DNA of 64,000 bases from Candidatus Tayloriibacteriota bacterium. Lineage in GTDB: Bacteria > Patescibacteriota > Minisyncoccia > Phycocordibacterales > PALSA-1337. Positions within the stretch are counted from its first letter, which is position 1, and each line of letters starts with the position of its first letter. A model generated the notes under the pieces. The model saw only the letters and a list, made by a program, of their open reading frames with translations, did not search any database and was not told the DNA's origin. Below, one piece after another: positions 30,166 through 60,737 of the stretch. The DNA lies in the NCBI GenBank assembly GCA_016215455.1, contig JACRJP010000004.1:91787-155786 (forward strand), written 5' to 3'. Position numbers and translations under genes: made by a program.

Positions 30166-30200
30166 CCTACTTCTTTGAAATAATTGTCTTCTTATACGTA
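30166..30200. repeat. direct repeat copy 2 (functional 3' end of the mreB-like gene)
   Basis: Matches 29559-29594. Confidence 0.7.
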
Positions 30201-31180
30201 TCGAGGTGATCGAGTGCAATACCAGTTCCCTTTACCACACAAAAGAGTGCATCATCAGCAAGACGAGCCTTTACTCCAGTTCGTCGATACACAAGTTCAG
30301 GAAGGTTACGGAGAAGTGATGAACCGCCAGTCATAGTAATACCCTGATCGATAATATCAGCAGCAAGCTCGGGTGGAGTTTCTTGAAGGACATCTTTGAT
30401 CGCCTTGATCATATCCCGAAGTTCTTTATTAATCGCCTTTACGATTTCATTTGTTTTAATCTCTGTTGAACGTGGAAGACCTGAAACAAAATCACGTCCC
30501 TTCACTGTCATGACAAATTCTTCTTCAAGTGGAATAGCTGAACCAATTTTAATTTTAATTTGTTCTGATGTCTTATCACCGATAGCAAGATTGAATGTCT
30601 TCTTTATATAATCAGCAATAGCAGCATCAATACGATCACCAGCACATTTTACTGATGTACACGCCACAATACCTCCAAGTGAAATCACCGCAACATCAGT
30701 TGTACCTCCTCCGATATCAACTACCATGTGTCCAACTGCTTCTTGAATAGGGATACCGGCACCAATAGCTGCGAGAATCGGCTCCTTAACCACGTACGCA
30801 TTTTTGGCCCCTGCCTTAAGTGCAGCTTCAATCACCGCACGACGTTCAGTCGATGTAATACCAGCGGGTACTGACACCATGACATCGGGTTTGAAAATAT
30901 TCCACTTCCCTAAGGCTTTATCAATAAAATAACGAAGCATCGCTTCAGTCACACGATAGTCAGCAATTACCCCATCACGCATCGGTCGATATGCAATGAT
31001 ATTTTCAGGAGTACGCCCAATCATCTCTTTGGCATCAAGACCTACTGCCAAGATCTTCTTATCATGTTCAGACACTGCAACAACCGAAGGTTCATTCAAA
31101 ACAACCCCTTTTCCAGGAACAAAAACAAGAGTGTTTGCTGTCCCAAGATCAATACCGATTTTTTTACTCCAGAGTGACAT
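30167..31180 (-). CDS. MreB/Mbl-family actin-like protein (second paralog)
   Basis: GIDLGTANTLVFV, DIGGGTTDVAVISLGGIV; 337 aa. Confidence 0.8.
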   Translation of the reverse strand: MSLWSKKIGIDLGTANTLVFVPGKGVVLNEPSVVAVSEHDKKILAVGLDAKEMIGRTPENIIAYRPMRDGVIADYRVTEAMLRYFIDKALGKWNIFKPDVMVSVPAGITSTERRAVIEAALKAGAKNAYVVKEPILAAIGAGIPIQEAVGHMVVDIGGGTTDVAVISLGGIVACTSVKCAGDRIDAAIADYIKKTFNLAIGDKTSEQIKIKIGSAIPLEEEFVMTVKGRDFVSGLPRSTEIKTNEIVKAINKELRDMIKAIKDVLQETPPELAADIIDQGITMTGGSSLLRNLPELVYRRTGVKARLADDALFCVVKGTGIALDHLDTYKKTIISKK

Positions 31181-31205: not shown

Positions 31206-32033
31206 CTATATAACAAAATCTGGTTGCTGCGCTCTTCGCTCCACTTCTTCGTTGAAAAGTCTCGCTATAATATCAAAAGGGACCTCCTTAAAATCAGGAC
31301 CAATTTCATTCGACATAGTATGAAAGACGAGTTCGGGGAAATTTAAATATTTGTCGCTATAATTCACCTTACCTACAAAAAAGCTACCTGGTCGTAAAAA
31401 TCTACCAACCGTAGCCTCTTTTAATTCAGAGTGCTGAGCAAGTATCTCACCACAACAATCTTTCATTTTCATCAAAGTTTGATCATCAATCGTTTTCATA
31501 TATGAACCGATAATCTTCGAATCGAAATCATACCCGGTGTCAGCTCTTCGCTCTTCTTCAGTAACGCGAATAGTTTCAGATAGAATATCCTCTAATTCTT
31601 GACCACTTATTTCAAGATCTCTAAATCGTATCCCGTCATCATGCTTTGCTCGATCAGAAGGAAGAGTAGCAAGATGGACTTTTTTAAATACACCATCTAT
31701 AAATTCTTCAAAAGTAGGAGGTGCTGGATGGTTGAGAAATGTAGAGTTGGATACCAATCTATCGTAGCCATCTCCACGACGTGACATTTGTCTTAAAAAA
31801 TAATCAAGCCCACCGTGTGTCGCTCGTGACGGAACTTCGGAAGACCAATCGAGTGAGCCTTTAAGACCCGCAATCTTGTCTCGTATTTGGGTAAGACGAC
31901 GTACTGACATATGAAAAGACGCTATTCCTTCCTGAAATTGTGTAAGAAATGCATCGCGAAGCTCTCGAATCTTTTCTGCACGAGCATCAGGGATGACAGG
32001 AGCTTCGGATTCAGCAGATGGAAATTCATTCAT
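31206..32033 (-). CDS. hypothetical protein
   Basis: 275-aa acidic ORF co-directional with the mreB paralog. Confidence 0.45.
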   Translation of the reverse strand: MNEFPSAESEAPVIPDARAEKIRELRDAFLTQFQEGIASFHMSVRRLTQIRDKIAGLKGSLDWSSEVPSRATHGGLDYFLRQMSRRGDGYDRLVSNSTFLNHPAPPTFEEFIDGVFKKVHLATLPSDRAKHDDGIRFRDLEISGQELEDILSETIRVTEEERRADTGYDFDSKIIGSYMKTIDDQTLMKMKDCCGEILAQHSELKEATVGRFLRPGSFFVGKVNYSDKYLNFPELVFHTMSNEIGPDFKEVPFDIIARLFNEEVERRAQQPDFVI

Positions 32034-32062
32034 GGTAATAAAATTATAGCATACAGCATTTT

Positions 32063-33136
32063 TTAACGAAGCATCTCCAAAAAATCAACGCTAGACACTT
32101 TCACACTCTGAGGAACAACATGAATTTTCTTGTCTATACCAAGAAGTTCTGCTAATCCGTTCACTGTACGAACAAAATTCAAACCATTCAGCAAAAGATT
32201 CTTTTCATGCTCATCAATCTCAGTACCCAAAGAAAGTTTTATGAGAATCGCTACAGTTTTATCCATCACACGATTATCACCTGGATATCGTGCATCGACC
32301 AAAGAATATGAGATTTTATCTTCTTTTTGATACACAACGACATTATCCTGTCCTGCAAGATCGAGTATTTCTCCAGTGTCTTCTGTATAGATAATTATTT
32401 TCTTAATTAATTCCCGTAACAATTTGTGTACATTTTCGTCAGTTTCAGACGCACTAAGAAGAGCTCGTAATGAATCCGAGGATTGAACACTAAGAAATTC
32501 TTCTTTATCCAATTTTTCTTCTGTACCTTGCTCAAAAACTAAACGATCAGTTATCTTCTTGTATACGTCAGCGCGTACCCCTTCTTTTTCAGCATATCCC
32601 GTAACAAGAGAAAGGCGATCAGGATCATTCATAGCCTCCACTCGTTTCTGTATTGTGATAACACTCCACGCTTCATTAATTTCAGGTATTACACCTTCTC
32701 TACAAACAACCTTCAATATATCTTGGGTAACAGGAATTTTGATTAAAGCCTCTTTTTGACCAGGAACATGCTCAGCTCCAAAATACTGTTTGAGTTGTTG
32801 ATGATAAACCCCCTCTCTTTTAAGAAAATCTTGTACAGCAGATTTTACCTCTTCTTCCAATGAATCAGCAGGTAATCCGTGTGTCATATTCCATTCAAGT
32901 ATCCCTCTCAGTGCCTCTGTCGCAACTTTCACCACAACACCTTGATGCTCTGGTATGTCGTATACAATATGCTCTCCACCTTTTGCTATAAATTTTGGTT
33001 GATATCTTGTAACTAAATCATGCTCAACCGCATTAAGAGTAAATCTTTCTTCCTCAGGAACAGTTCTCTCAACCGCCGTAGAATCTGTTTCTGTCAGAAT
33101 GTCGTTAGGGGTAGTTTTGAGAGTTTCAGGACTCAT
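32063..33136 (-). CDS. hypothetical protein
   Basis: 357 aa. The N-terminal KGGEHIVYDIP is Gly-loop-like, so it may be an atypical kinase-like fold. Speculative. Confidence 0.45.
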   Translation of the reverse strand: MSPETLKTTPNDILTETDSTAVERTVPEEERFTLNAVEHDLVTRYQPKFIAKGGEHIVYDIPEHQGVVVKVATEALRGILEWNMTHGLPADSLEEEVKSAVQDFLKREGVYHQQLKQYFGAEHVPGQKEALIKIPVTQDILKVVCREGVIPEINEAWSVITIQKRVEAMNDPDRLSLVTGYAEKEGVRADVYKKITDRLVFEQGTEEKLDKEEFLSVQSSDSLRALLSASETDENVHKLLRELIKKIIIYTEDTGEILDLAGQDNVVVYQKEDKISYSLVDARYPGDNRVMDKTVAILIKLSLGTEIDEHEKNLLLNGLNFVRTVNGLAELLGIDKKIHVVPQSVKVSSVDFLEMLR

Positions 33137-33210
33137 CCGCCTATTCTAACAGAACATCATCCCAGGTAACAGTCAGCTAGATATACACATTTTATTGACT
33201 AGATTTATAT

Positions 33211-33226
33211 ATAGCATATATGCTAT
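33211..33226. promoter_or_regulatory. perfect 16-bp palindrome ATAGCATATATGCTAT in the promoter region of HTH-murA
   Basis: Self-complementary 16-mer 33 nt upstream of the ATG, overlapping -35-like TTGACT (33195-33200) and a TATACT -10-like box. Confidence 0.5.
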
Positions 33227-33258
33227 ACTACTAACCATACGTACAATAAAAGGAATCA

Positions 33259-34791
33259 ATGAAAAATTCAAAGAAAACAAACAATCCCCTCGTGAATATC
33301 GGTAAGATGATTAGCCAACTTCGTGAAGATCGTCGCATGACACAGTCTGAGCTTGCTAAGAAAATCGACACCACTCAAAGTGTTGTCGCTCGTATTGAAA
33401 CAGGTGAACAAAATATTAGTACTGAAACACTTTCAAAAATAAGTGCGGCACTTGATCGTGAAATTGTTACCATTGCTCCAAAAGGTATGCTCAACTTTCG
33501 TGTTGAAGGTGGTCGTAAACTTTCAGGAACTATCGTCGTTCGACCATCTAAGAATGGTACAGTAGGTGTAATGTGTGCATCTCTTTTGAATAAAGGTACG
33601 ACAACAATCAAAAATGCTCCGAAGATCGAAGAAGTGTATCGAATTGCTGAGGTACTCGAAAGTATTGGAGTGAACGTAGAATGGAAAGGTAAAGATCTCC
33701 TTATCACTCCTCCTAAAAAGATTACCATCGACAAAATCGATGTAGAAAATGCTGCCAAAACTCGCAGTGCCATTATGATCATGGGTCCCCTTCTCCATGA
33801 ATTCAAGAAGTTTAATCTTCCTCAGGCTGGAGGTTGTCGACTTGGATCACGAACAGTAAAACCCTACTTTTATGCTCTTGAACGAGTGGGTGTAAAGATT
33901 GAAACGGAATCAGATCACTATGCAATTTCACACAATGGTCTCAAAAAAGACAGTGAGATCATCATGTATGAATCTGGTGACACTGCAACTGAAACAGTTC
34001 TCATGGCTGCTGCACGAATTCCAGGAAAGACTGTTATCAAATTTGCTTCACCGAACTACCAAGTACAAGATGTCTGTTTCTATCTCGAGGCCTTGGGAGT
34101 GAAGATAGAAGGTATTGGAACGGCGTACCTCACTGTTTACGGCAAAGAGAATATCGATACAAACATTGAATACTCTGTAACTGAAGATCCAATTGAGGCT
34201 ATGTCACTTCTTGCAGTAGCAATTGTTACCAAGTCATCTATTACTATTGAGCGCTGCCCTATCGACTTTCTCGAACTCGAACTCTACAAACTCGAAAAGA
34301 TGGGTTTCAAATATAAAATAGTACGACGTTATACAGCAGCAAATGGATCCGCACATCTCGCCGACATTACCACATTCCCTTCACAACTCGTGGCACTCGA
34401 GGAAAAAATTCACGCAATGCACCCTGGTATTAACATGGATAACCTCCCTTTCTTTGCTATCATCGGTACACAAGCAGAAGGTCAGACATTCATCCATGAT
34501 TGGAGTTTTGAAGAACGAGCTATCTACTACAAGGAACTTGATAAGATGCGTGCTGATACGATTCTTGCCGATCCACACCGCTTCTATGTCAAAGGCCCTA
34601 CAAAGCTCAAGGCAACAGAAATTGTCTGTCCCCCAGCACTACGCCCTTCAGTGATTATTCTCATTGGTATGCTCGCAGCTGAAGGAACATCAATCCTTCG
34701 TGGAGTCTATAACATCAATCGTGGCTACGAAGACCTCGCTGAACGACTCAATTCTATTGGTGCAAAAATCGAAACATTCCGAGATTTGTAA
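33259..34791 (+). CDS. murA: XRE-type HTH domain fused to UDP-N-acetylglucosamine 1-carboxyvinyltransferase (MurA)
   Basis: Residues ~10-70 read as an HTH_XRE (QSELAKKIDTTQSVVARIETGEQNIS). Residues ~77-510 are collinear with MurA, with the catalytic Cys in GGCRLGSR. SD AAAGGAA precedes the ATG at 33259. Confidence 0.8.
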   Translation: MKNSKKTNNPLVNIGKMISQLREDRRMTQSELAKKIDTTQSVVARIETGEQNISTETLSKISAALDREIVTIAPKGMLNFRVEGGRKLSGTIVVRPSKNGTVGVMCASLLNKGTTTIKNAPKIEEVYRIAEVLESIGVNVEWKGKDLLITPPKKITIDKIDVENAAKTRSAIMIMGPLLHEFKKFNLPQAGGCRLGSRTVKPYFYALERVGVKIETESDHYAISHNGLKKDSEIIMYESGDTATETVLMAAARIPGKTVIKFASPNYQVQDVCFYLEALGVKIEGIGTAYLTVYGKENIDTNIEYSVTEDPIEAMSLLAVAIVTKSSITIERCPIDFLELELYKLEKMGFKYKIVRRYTAANGSAHLADITTFPSQLVALEEKIHAMHPGINMDNLPFFAIIGTQAEGQTFIHDWSFEERAIYYKELDKMRADTILADPHRFYVKGPTKLKATEIVCPPALRPSVIILIGMLAAEGTSILRGVYNINRGYEDLAERLNSIGAKIETFRDL

Positions 34792-34822
34792 AAAGTCTAT
34801 CTGAGTTTGCTATACTGTAGCT

Positions 34823-56495: not shown

Positions 56496-57320
56496 TCACT
56501 CCGGCGCAGGAGAACCTCCGTTCTTCTTGCCGATGTCAGACCGTGCCGCCGCAGAAACAATCGCAGCCCGTTCTTTGTTGGTAATCACACCTCCAGAGTT
56601 GAGATAGTTTGCGAGATCCGTCACGCATGACACGTAATCGCCATGATTGGCAACACCGACCGCACACTGGTCGATGAGGTCTTGCACTGTTGCGCCGCCG
56701 GAACCGACGACCACTTGAATCGTCACGCTCGCGAGTCGCACACCACCAGAACCGGCGCCCTTCTCTACCGCATACAGCGTGTAGTCATAGGTAGCGTTCT
56801 GCGTGGGATTAAGCCCGTAGACCGCGAACCCGATGTTCTGCGACTGTTGGACGATGTTGTAGGTATTCGCCAGCACCGTCTGATCTCCGGCTTCGATGCC
56901 GCCACCATTAGGCGTCGCGTCGTTGCCGAAGGAGTTGTCGGTCCAGGTCGTGAGAACGTTGAGTGCGTTGTAATTGACACCCACCGAGGGATCGAGATCG
57001 ACCAGAAGATAGTAGTCGAGCTGGCCGACCGGTCCGTTTCCGGTCCGGATCGAAAACTCGAAATTCCAAGCAGCACGAGTTATGCTCGAAGGAGCAAAGC
57101 CGACTGGCATGTAATACGTATCGTCAACGTGGGTGGTGTCCCCTGTCGTGCGATTCTTAGCGCGCAAAGCGACGGTGACGTCGTTCTGAGTTTCGGCGTT
57201 CCAACCGACATCAGGGTTCCCACCACCGAAAATTGCCGTGATCACGGCATTGAAGTCGATGGCAAAGGCCGCTGAGGTGGAGACGAGTGCTGCAATGAGC
57301 ACTGAGGTGAGACGCTTCAT
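56496..57320 (-). CDS. secreted hypothetical protein (markedly G+C-rich)
   Basis: Signal peptide MKRLTSVLIAALVSTSAAFA. Gly/Thr/Asn-rich mature part; G+C by eye is far above the flanks. Confidence 0.5.
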   Translation of the reverse strand: MKRLTSVLIAALVSTSAAFAIDFNAVITAIFGGGNPDVGWNAETQNDVTVALRAKNRTTGDTTHVDDTYYMPVGFAPSSITRAAWNFEFSIRTGNGPVGQLDYYLLVDLDPSVGVNYNALNVLTTWTDNSFGNDATPNGGGIEAGDQTVLANTYNIVQQSQNIGFAVYGLNPTQNATYDYTLYAVEKGAGSGGVRLASVTIQVVVGSGGATVQDLIDQCAVGVANHGDYVSCVTDLANYLNSGGVITNKERAAIVSAAARSDIGKKNGGSPAPE

Positions 57321-60194: not shown

Positions 60195-60707
60195 TTACAC
60201 CTTATCACTCGCATAGCGTTTTTTACGATACCAATATACCGCATATATAAGAATAAGGAATCCTACGTTCGTAAAAAATATAATTGGTGTTGACCAGGGT
60301 ATTCCATTAATCGGAGTAAATGCAAATGGCCATAAATATGGTGTAGGGAAAAATTCTGTCGAATGTGTAAAGAGATCAAGAAATATATGAAATGGCCACG
60401 CAAGCATTTCCCATATTGGTCGTTTAAACAATGCCCATACAATACAAAATACGAGTATGAATATAACAAAGCTGTGTGTGATGTCATAAAGACCACTCAC
60501 ATACTGGGGAATCTCAGCAAGATCGGGTTTACCTGAACGTATGTGCCAAGTACCCGTGAAGGCCGAACGAATAAGTCTTTCTAAGAAAAGAATACCGAAT
60601 GAAAGAAAATCGGGACCAATACCGAAAACAAAACTCGCCCAAAAGCTTTTTTTATTTTTTCTACCAAAAATAATACCTCCCCAAAGTCCGTGTGAAAGAA
60701 TATCCAT
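60195..60707 (-). CDS. membrane-bound metal-dependent hydrolase (DUF457/YdjM-like)
   Basis: MDILSHGLWGG N-terminus and His-rich TM helices. Confidence 0.5.
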   Translation of the reverse strand: MDILSHGLWGGIIFGRKNKKSFWASFVFGIGPDFLSFGILFLERLIRSAFTGTWHIRSGKPDLAEIPQYVSGLYDITHSFVIFILVFCIVWALFKRPIWEMLAWPFHIFLDLFTHSTEFFPTPYLWPFAFTPINGIPWSTPIIFFTNVGFLILIYAVYWYRKKRYASDKV

Positions 60708-60737
60708 GAGAGAAGTATAGCAAAAAATATTAAAAAA

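Follow-up and report, generated by a model that had tools for sequence, protein, structure and literature searches.

A gene for the cell-wall enzyme MurA, found in a 64,000-nucleotide stretch of a Candidatus Tayloriibacteriota genome (contig JACRJP010000004.1; the whole stretch is here called the window), encodes a helix-turn-helix (HTH) domain of the XRE family fused in frame to the enzyme. The fusion is genuine and occurs widely, the enzyme retains its catalytic residues, a palindromic operator overlaps the promoter of the gene, and among relatives this operator co-occurs and co-varies with the HTH domain. We propose that HTH-MurA is a self-repressing enzyme-regulator, or "trigger enzyme", in which MurA represses its own gene via the fused HTH domain and the operator, and we put the probability of this reading at roughly 0.78. 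DNA binding, dimerization, repression and enzyme activity are predicted from the sequence.

In the proposed mechanism, one polypeptide would perform two jobs. The C-terminal MurA portion would act as the first committed enzyme of peptidoglycan-precursor synthesis, and the N-terminal ~72 residues would form an XRE-type HTH that recognizes the palindrome overlapping the extended -10 element of its own promoter. Two protomers would each occupy a half-site, 11 bp from the other on the same face of the helix, and would block the access of RNA polymerase to the -10 and extended -10 elements. MurA would thus repress its own synthesis, which could keep the enzyme at a constant level. Autoregulation by dimers bound to palindromes is typical of XRE regulators (PMC12565409). 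An operator predicted to lie over -25 to -10, with half-sites 11 bp apart, has the classical geometry of an XRE autorepressor, which is why we read the gene as that of a self-repressing MurA.

The gene has the proper Shine-Dalgarno sequence and ATG start that a preliminary description of this DNA had assigned to it. The same description held that an XRE-type HTH is joined in frame to a full-length MurA with its catalytic cysteine, and family profiles bear this out, with both domains and Cys193 in one open reading frame (ORF). In Pfam, HTH_3 (PF01381) matches amino acids 18-69 (E = 3.1e-16; 59.6 bits, cut-off 23), and EPSP_synthase (PF00275) matches amino acids 82-497 (E = 5.9e-43), covering profile positions 1-417 of 417. 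Among NCBIfam models, the MurA subfamily model NF006873 scores 318.7 bits, exceeding its cut-off of 297; NF009470 reaches 211 bits, under its cut-off of 552, and the AroA model only 82 bits. The window protein probably belongs to a divergent MurA subfamily. There is no second murA within the window.

Structure prediction agrees with this assignment. The AlphaFold2 model of the full protein (predicted local distance difference test score, pLDDT, 87; predicted template modeling score, pTM, 0.82) consists of a MurA fold preceded by a five-helix HTH. The HTH helices span amino acids 10-24, 29-35, 40-47, 55-64 and 69-72 at pLDDT 71-89, so that the N-terminal domain does model as an HTH, a point on which the preliminary description had made its interpretation depend. 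The peptide QSELAKKIDTTQSVVARIETGEQNIS corresponds to amino acids 29-54, inside this domain, whose nearest sequences in the PDB are the HTH domains of MBF1/EDF1, SinR, C.BclI and HipB. When the full model was used in a fold search, it aligned with solved MurA structures, including UNAM-bound ones, at template modeling scores of 0.84-0.90 (E about 1e-36). That search returned stand-alone MurA or enolpyruvyl transferase (EPT) structures only, none with an N-terminal HTH; all solved MurA proteins in it are of about 411-438 residues and leave the HTH uncovered.

The residues K22, N23, R91, C115, R120, D305, R371 and R397, in what we take to be the E. coli MurA numbering (the alignment of the catalytic loop was cross-checked against PDB 5UJS), are every one kept in the window protein. 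In an alignment of 61 orthologues, K98, N99, C193, R198, D394 and R462 of the window numbering are invariant, as is the catalytic loop, and the MurA domain is presumably catalytically competent. Also invariant in this alignment are T39, Q40, S41, A44, R45, I46, E47, G49, Q51 and N52 of the HTH.

The fusion is not peculiar to this genome. We searched 5.8 billion proteins and took the best 120 matches, all of which contain both PF01381 and PF00275. These homologues are 70-98% identical to the window protein, are 487-550 amino acids long, come from many independent assemblies, and are labelled Candidatus Paceibacterota, Taylorbacteria or Parcubacteria. A scan with one genome per species found 351 relatives, of which the best 80 loci were analysed; in 76 of these, the HTH is in frame with MurA and is connected by a short linker of conserved length. 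One seemingly split HTH-murA gene (L049, 4001-4440) reflects a masked run of N within the HTH region, and is a data artefact. Among representatives of 50%-identity clusters, full-length fusions extend down to 33% identity.

One such cluster (P0122) consists of proteins from isolate genomes of cultured Nonomuraea (Actinomycetota), which are 52% identical to the window protein, have the catalytic cysteine intact, and are named in RefSeq either MurA or "helix-turn-helix domain-containing protein". In the Nonomuraea locus (L206; 5972-5987, 6001-7530), an operator variant, ATCTCATATGTGAGAT, lies 29 nt upstream of the gene, and a gene for a phage-type integrase is immediately downstream. This arrangement suggests that the Nonomuraea HTH-MurA is a horizontally acquired extra copy of murA. 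Full-text literature searches found no description of the HTH-MurA fusion, or of this way of controlling cell-wall synthesis. The architecture is already in databases under automatic names.

The preliminary description reported a perfect 16-bp palindrome 33 nt upstream of the gene. The palindrome is where it was placed, with its last base 33 nt before the ATG, and in fact extends to a perfect 18 bp (33210..33227). The centers of its half-sites, ATAGC and GCTAT, are separated by 11 bp. A search for other copies, which had been proposed as a check, found none in the window even when up to three mismatches were allowed. The palindrome had also been said to overlap promoter elements, and this is correct for the extended -10 element, TGCTATACT. 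The TTGACT at 33195 is 23 nt from the conserved TATACT, the real -10 hexamer, and pairs only with a poor TATGCT at a spacing of 18 nt; we therefore rejected a canonical -35/-10 promoter in favor of an extended -10 promoter. From the predicted transcription start, the operator would span about -25 to -10, and the predicted leader of HTH-murA is ~23 nt long and includes the Shine-Dalgarno sequence.

The conservation of the palindrome was studied in upstream regions of the orthologues, anchored on the palindrome; the 80 loci and the window together comprise 745 kb. The operator consensus is ATAGC(A/G)TATATGCTAT. Each of positions 1-16 has an information content of about 0.9-2.9 bits, compared with about 0.1 bit in the flanks. 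Information is lowest at position 6 (A or G), whereas its mirror position, 11, is fixed, as expected for a base that doubles as the T of the extended -10 element. The TG of that element corresponds to T11-G12, and A17 and T19 complete a TATAnT hexamer; T19 and the TG at 11-12 are 97-100% conserved (T19 100%). With up to two mismatches, the palindrome occurs once per locus, directly upstream of HTH-murA, in 71 loci and in the window, and nowhere else in the 745 kb. Two of the 76 HTH-bearing loci have no upstream DNA and were left out of the operator count. All 74 others have an operator: 71 at zero to two mismatches and three as variants, namely a 3-mismatch variant in L055 and ATCTCATATGTGATAT in L059 and L077.

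In the four remaining loci (L058, L075, L076 and L078), MurA is without the HTH domain and is 72-75% identical to the window MurA domain. By pairwise identity (72-84%), the HTH-less genes are nested among HTH-bearing ones. L075 is 82% identical to the HTH-bearing L012 and only 72-75% identical to the other HTH-less genes, which suggests that the HTH was lost more than once. All four loci keep an extended -10 element, ATG(N)TATAAAT, before the gene, and mreB is the immediate divergent neighbor in three of them. The left half-site, however, is gone or, in L058, displaced by 14 nt. The promoter half of the palindrome thus survives the loss of the HTH and its mirror half does not, as would be expected if the left arm is kept only for HTH binding.

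Changes in the operator also tend to preserve its symmetry. Two distant loci, L203 and L209 (encoding P0129 and P0130), have the perfect palindrome ATATCATATATGATAT, in which G4 is changed to T and C13 to A together. In the Nonomuraea locus, L059 and L077, the operator is ATCTCATATGTGAGAT or ATCTCATATGTGATAT, with positions 3/14 and 4/13 changed symmetrically. Such symmetry-preserving changes are the signature of a dimeric binding site, and not of a -10 element. They are also related to a residue of the HTH: across all loci, 68 of the 73 operators that were found with Thr39 have G at position 4, and eight of the nine found with Ser39 have T or A there.

More distant relatives have the same architecture without the catalytic residues. 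Seven representatives (P0129, P0130, P0143, P0144, P0152, P0172 and P0208) are 33-43% identical to the window protein and keep the HTH (TSQSA..R.E.G.QN) and a full EPT-sized domain. C115 and R91 are absent from all seven, and R120 and further catalytic residues from most. Most of their genes are near those for peptidoglycan precursors. The genes for P0144 and P0129 have a canonical murA-murB pair on their divergent side and ddl or genes for Mur ligases downstream; that for P0130 is divergent from an operon of an unassigned ORF, a Mur ligase gene and murA, and upstream of a further Mur ligase gene. The P0208 gene follows murB and a RelA/SpoT gene, the P0143 gene follows an ORF taken as alanine racemase from its C-terminal sequence, without a family search, and the P0152 gene follows genes for a NUDIX protein and a nucleoside triphosphate (NTP) transferase. 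Operators of the same family precede the gene or its operon in five of six distant loci examined. Among the distant loci, L201 (3975-3990, 4001-5530), L202-L205 and L207-L209, most have the operator variants ATAACATATATGCTAT, ATATCATATATGATAT or ATATCAAATATGATAT before the gene, and in L207 an operator-like site is before the first gene of a three-gene operon.

The retention of the HTH together with loss of the catalytic loop indicates that the architecture is maintained for regulation. These relatives lacking the Cys loop look like dedicated pseudo-enzyme regulators of peptidoglycan-precursor genes, derived from HTH-MurA, and they suggest that the EPT domain supplies oligomerization or ligand sensing.

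An exact-match scan of metagenome contigs for ATAGCRTATATGCTAT detected at least 120 loci. Although HTH-murA was expected to be the majority, it accounts for only 3 among the 120 matches listed (L110, L152 and L169), and the 16-mer is not unique to murA. Among the matches listed, a small XRE gene starts within ~40 nt of the palindrome in about 20 cases, frequently just 1 nt beyond it. Of these ~20 genes, about a dozen encode the helix GT(T/K)QS(V/A)(I/V)(S/A)R(L/I)E.G, whose counterpart in the MurA HTH is TTQSVVARIETG. Most such XRE proteins, again among the matches listed, are antitoxin-like, 93-111 amino acids long, and encoded downstream of a Gp49/RelE-like toxin. This helix and the 16-mer therefore form a recurrent cognate pair beyond the MurA context.

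Other features of these metagenome loci are varied. In nine of them (L168, L174, L177, L118, L124, L091, L199, L082 and L198), the palindrome is between the toxin gene (MxWKVxFFQTARG...) and the gene for the 93-111-amino-acid XRE antitoxin; often, its end is 1 nt ahead of the antitoxin ATG and a TTGACAG lies some 17 nt upstream. The palindrome looks here like an internal promoter/operator of a toxin-antitoxin family. A repeat family (L083, L085, L090, L098, L100, L105-L107 and others) contains the palindrome inside ...agcgcgcgATAGCATATATGCTATagcgcgctatatgccatcgcccgtccgtccgtc..., followed by (GACG/GACA)n-like tracts. Its many copies come from a few samples (Ga0056131, Ga0056132, Ga0209681 and Ga0209788), and the family probably represents a repetitive element from a eukaryote or another unrelated genome. 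In L081, L095, L109, L113, L145, L176, L184 and L197, a second palindrome, GTTGCATTAATGCTAC, precedes the 16-mer, and a small HTH protein (MSRNPEEP...) with a different recognition helix, VHYQTIGYIERG, is encoded directly after the palindrome. The remaining matches among those listed are scattered singletons. Some matches, such as the eukaryote-like repeats and singletons, are expected by chance at such a database size.

Several other explanations of these observations were considered. The palindrome might be a promoter feature only, consisting of an extended -10 element and its mirror image and acting bidirectionally toward mreB or the upstream gene, while the HTH serves as a RodZ-like protein-interaction module that tethers MurA to the MreB machinery. 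The XRE-type HTH of RodZ binds MreB, the right arm of the palindrome is identical to the organism's extended -10 element, and mreB is the immediate divergent neighbor of HTH-murA in most relatives; in 44 of the 80 loci, 38-395 nt separate the mreB start codon from the palindrome. We consider this explanation quite unlikely. A -10 hexamer on the minus strand would need a T as its last base, and this base is not conserved, the corresponding A at position -2 being present in just 33% of loci. Other TGCTATACT promoters have no mirrored arm. Moreover, HTH-less relatives keep the -10 half and the adjoining mreB but lose the left arm, both arms vary together and with helix residue 39, and unrelated XRE repressors are found with the same palindrome, which is perfect in the window although mreB is 2 kb away. 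The domain itself gives no match to HTH_25 (PF13413, the RodZ type) in Pfam at E up to 0.01, and MurA follows directly after it. The preliminary description left open whether the enzyme doubles as a DNA-binding regulator or is tethered to one; comparison of relatives favors the autoregulatory reading, and tethering is less likely than direct autoregulation. Alternatively, the protein could bind the palindrome and have its main output elsewhere, as a ligand-dependent switch or in control mainly of the divergent mreB promoter or other genes, with the murA promoter as one target. The compact mreB/murA intergenic region shared in most relatives would fit this scenario, as would the catalytically dead paralogues between divergent murA-murB and ddl/Mur-ligase operons and the site before the three-gene operon in L207. 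It is nonetheless improbable, given that the operator is at a fixed offset from the murA -10 element and at a variable distance from mreB, that it covers the region in which repression classically occurs, and that it persists in the window though mreB is not adjacent.

The metagenome loci raise a different possibility, that a free-standing XRE regulator with the same helix, such as an antitoxin, binds the palindrome, and the HTH fused to MurA is a non-functional remnant. Small XRE antitoxins with this helix motif do adjoin the same palindrome in metagenomes. However, the recognition residues of the fused HTH do not vary among orthologues whose remaining sequence differs by 20-40%, unlike those of a remnant, and the operator vanishes exactly where the fused HTH is lost, so we regard this explanation as very improbable. 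The preliminary description had named one further danger, an assembly or frameshift artefact that joins a small HTH gene to murA. Such an artefact is scarcely credible when isolate genomes and over 120 independent assemblies of differing origin share the same continuous ORF, with a linker of conserved length; comparison with related genomes, which that description recommended, found the fusion in all 120 best homologues and in the Nonomuraea isolates.

Some observations weigh against a self-repressing MurA. The palindrome by itself is not beyond chance within an AT-rich 64-kb window: a perfect palindrome of at least 18 bp occurs in 31% of Markov-1 simulated windows, and a match to the palindrome with up to three mismatches in 28% of window shuffles. 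Its significance comes from conservation in relatives, and there the right arm would be conserved anyway, being promoter. The loci are phylogenetically related, so that counts overstate the number of independent events; the HTH losses amount to perhaps two or three events, and each operator variant to a few lineages. One distant locus, L202, has no recognizable operator, and its gene is apparently in an operon behind alr. As the window contains no second copy of the operator, no regulon is shown there. The MurA equivalog model TIGR01072 (NCBIfam) gives the window protein 312.0 bits, under its cut-off of 392.7. Finally, MurA is usually described as a monomer, whereas the mechanism proposed here would require dimerization.

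The self-repressing MurA could also respond directly to metabolites. Ligand state of the MurA domain, as set by UDP-N-acetylglucosamine (UDP-GlcNAc), phosphoenolpyruvate (PEP) and UDP-N-acetylmuramic acid (UDP-MurNAc), might tune DNA binding of the window protein and provide direct metabolite feedback; this is a speculation, and we think it somewhat more likely to be wrong than right. A broader and equally tentative idea is that the EPT (MurA) fold is the sensor of an unrecognized family of transcription factors for peptidoglycan-precursor synthesis in Patescibacteria. In Paceibacteria, the active enzyme might convert its ligand state (UDP-GlcNAc, PEP, UDP-MurNAc; open or closed) into operator occupancy at its own promoter and possibly that of mreB. 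Elsewhere, a duplicated copy might have lost catalysis and become a dedicated regulator between murA-murB and ddl/Mur-ligase genes. The relationship of residue 39 to positions 4/13 might then be a code that can be read from sequence.

Coordinates of the features of the locus are collected in Table 1.

Table 1. Features in and upstream of HTH-murA (window coordinates)
Feature	Position	Strand	Basis or remark
ATATACACA, degenerate copy (2 mismatches) of the DnaA-box-like TTATCCACA	33181..33189	+	
Predicted operator, 16-bp palindrome ATAGCATATATGCTAT	33211..33226	.	Sequence and conservation
Extended -10 element TGCTATACT (hexamer TATACT at 33224-33229)	33221..33229	+	Overlaps right arm of operator
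Predicted transcription start, +/- 1-2 nt	33236	+	Usual spacing from -10 to start
AAGGA, Shine-Dalgarno-like	33250..33254	+	4 nt before ATG; sequence read directly
HTH-MurA coding sequence, 510 amino acids plus stop, ATG start	33259..34791	+	ORF and family profile matches
XRE/Cro-C1-type HTH domain, amino acids ~10-72	33286..33474	+	HTH_3 match and AlphaFold2 helices
Predicted recognition helix QSVVARIE, amino acids 40-47, after T38-T39	33376..33399	+	Invariant residues, operator tracking
Linker APKGM, amino acids 73-77, ~5 residues	33475..33489	+	Alignment and AlphaFold2 model
MurA domain (UDP-GlcNAc enolpyruvyl transferase), amino acids 78-510, 433 residues	33490..34788	+	Profiles, residues, fold search
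Catalytic Cys193 codon	33835-33837	+	Loop GGCRLGSR, aligned with E. coli C115

In the window, HTH-murA is followed by a priA-like gene, def and fmt, and is preceded on the minus strand by two ORFs (31206..32033 and 32063..33136) and then mreB (30167..31180). The two inserted ORFs, of 275 and 357 amino acids, have no Pfam match, and tblastn found neither of them in any of the 80 related loci. Since mreB shares a short intergenic region with HTH-murA in most relatives, the divergent gene could be co-regulated.

A second conserved element is found in this upstream region. With at most one mismatch allowed, the 80 nt that precede the palindrome contain the DnaA-box-like sequence TTATCCACA in 41 of 73 orthologous loci (an exact copy in 21), compared with 2.2% for background windows of 80 nt. 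It starts most commonly at -29 relative to the operator, and most copies share one orientation. Seen from the mreB strand, TTATCCACA falls within the spacer of a plausible mreB promoter (TTGAAA-16-TATGAT). For the window, a replication origin was rejected as an explanation of this motif, as the window has neither a GC-skew switch nor an enrichment of such boxes.

The extended -10 sequence TGCTATACT occurs elsewhere in the window without the mirrored left arm. It is present at 34808-34816 (plus strand), 6 nt before the priA ATG (34823), and at 60714-60722 (minus strand), 6 nt before the ATG of a gene starting at 60707 on that strand. The related TGCTATAAT is at 32043-32051 (minus strand), 6-9 nt before the ATG (32033) of the 275-amino-acid ORF. 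This spacing would imply leaderless or near-leaderless mRNAs for priA, the 60707 gene and the 275-amino-acid ORF. The possibility that the palindrome is a general promoter motif was rejected, as the full palindrome occurs once per locus in the 745 kb and these other promoters are without the left arm. The only other perfect palindrome of at least 16 bp in the window is TGCCGTGATCACGGCA at 57234-57249.

MurA catalyses the committed step of cell-wall synthesis and is the target of fosfomycin. To our knowledge, how its level is set is known only in a few model organisms, where it involves proteolysis or feedback inhibition. If HTH-MurA represses its own gene, it would constitute a minimal homeostatic circuit, which would fit the tiny genomes of the candidate phyla radiation (CPR) with their few regulators. 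We know of no trigger enzyme in peptidoglycan-precursor synthesis, and HTH-MurA would then be the first in this pathway. The operator and HTH are so sharply conserved that the hypothesis is testable without culturing the organism, and the cultured Nonomuraea copy offers a genetically tractable host. The correlation of T39 or S39 with G4 or T4 provides a handle on binding specificity, and the catalytically dead relatives beside murA-murB may represent a transition from enzyme to regulator caught at several stages.

Among known systems, the closest parallels are the trigger enzymes with a DNA-binding domain of their own: BirA (biotin ligase and bio repressor), PutA (proline dehydrogenase and put repressor) and NadR. 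Like these, HTH-MurA is a metabolic enzyme with an N-terminal DNA-binding domain and a predicted operator at a pathway promoter, an arrangement that could couple enzyme or metabolite state to transcription. As with PutA, the enzyme's own gene is one of those served by the divergent intergenic region in which the operator lies. However, BirA has a winged HTH and PutA a ribbon-helix-helix, whereas the window protein has a five-helix XRE domain on an EPT-fold MurA, and ligand control here is a conjecture. Taken alone, the HTH is an ordinary XRE-family domain. Autoregulating repressors of the XRE/Cro-C1 type (434 Cro/CI, SinR, HipB, HigA and controller C proteins) share PF01381, an operator over their own -10 element and half-sites one helical turn apart. 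Those proteins are of 70-170 amino acids, with at most a small extension for dimerization or toxin binding, whereas here the HTH is followed by a ~5-residue linker and a 433-amino-acid essential enzyme. The seven distant relatives, with their catalysis-depleted enzyme fold, HTH and pathway-gene neighbors, resemble MocR/GabR, in which an HTH is joined to an aminotransferase-like sensor. The enzyme fold and HTH type differ from those of MocR/GabR, and the enzyme domain in the window retains every catalytic residue.

In Firmicutes, MurA is degraded by ClpCP under the governance of ReoM/ReoY and the PASTA kinase. MurA is also subject to feedback inhibition by UDP-MurNAc. These mechanisms act at the same control point, the amount or activity of MurA. 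Unlike proteolysis via ClpCP/ReoM or the formation of a dormant complex, the control proposed here would be transcriptional and built into the enzyme. RodZ likewise has an XRE-type HTH in a cell-wall context, in common with HTH-MurA and its conserved neighbor mreB. Unlike RodZ, HTH-MurA has no HTH_25 domain and no transmembrane segment, and is associated with a palindromic DNA site that co-varies with its helix.

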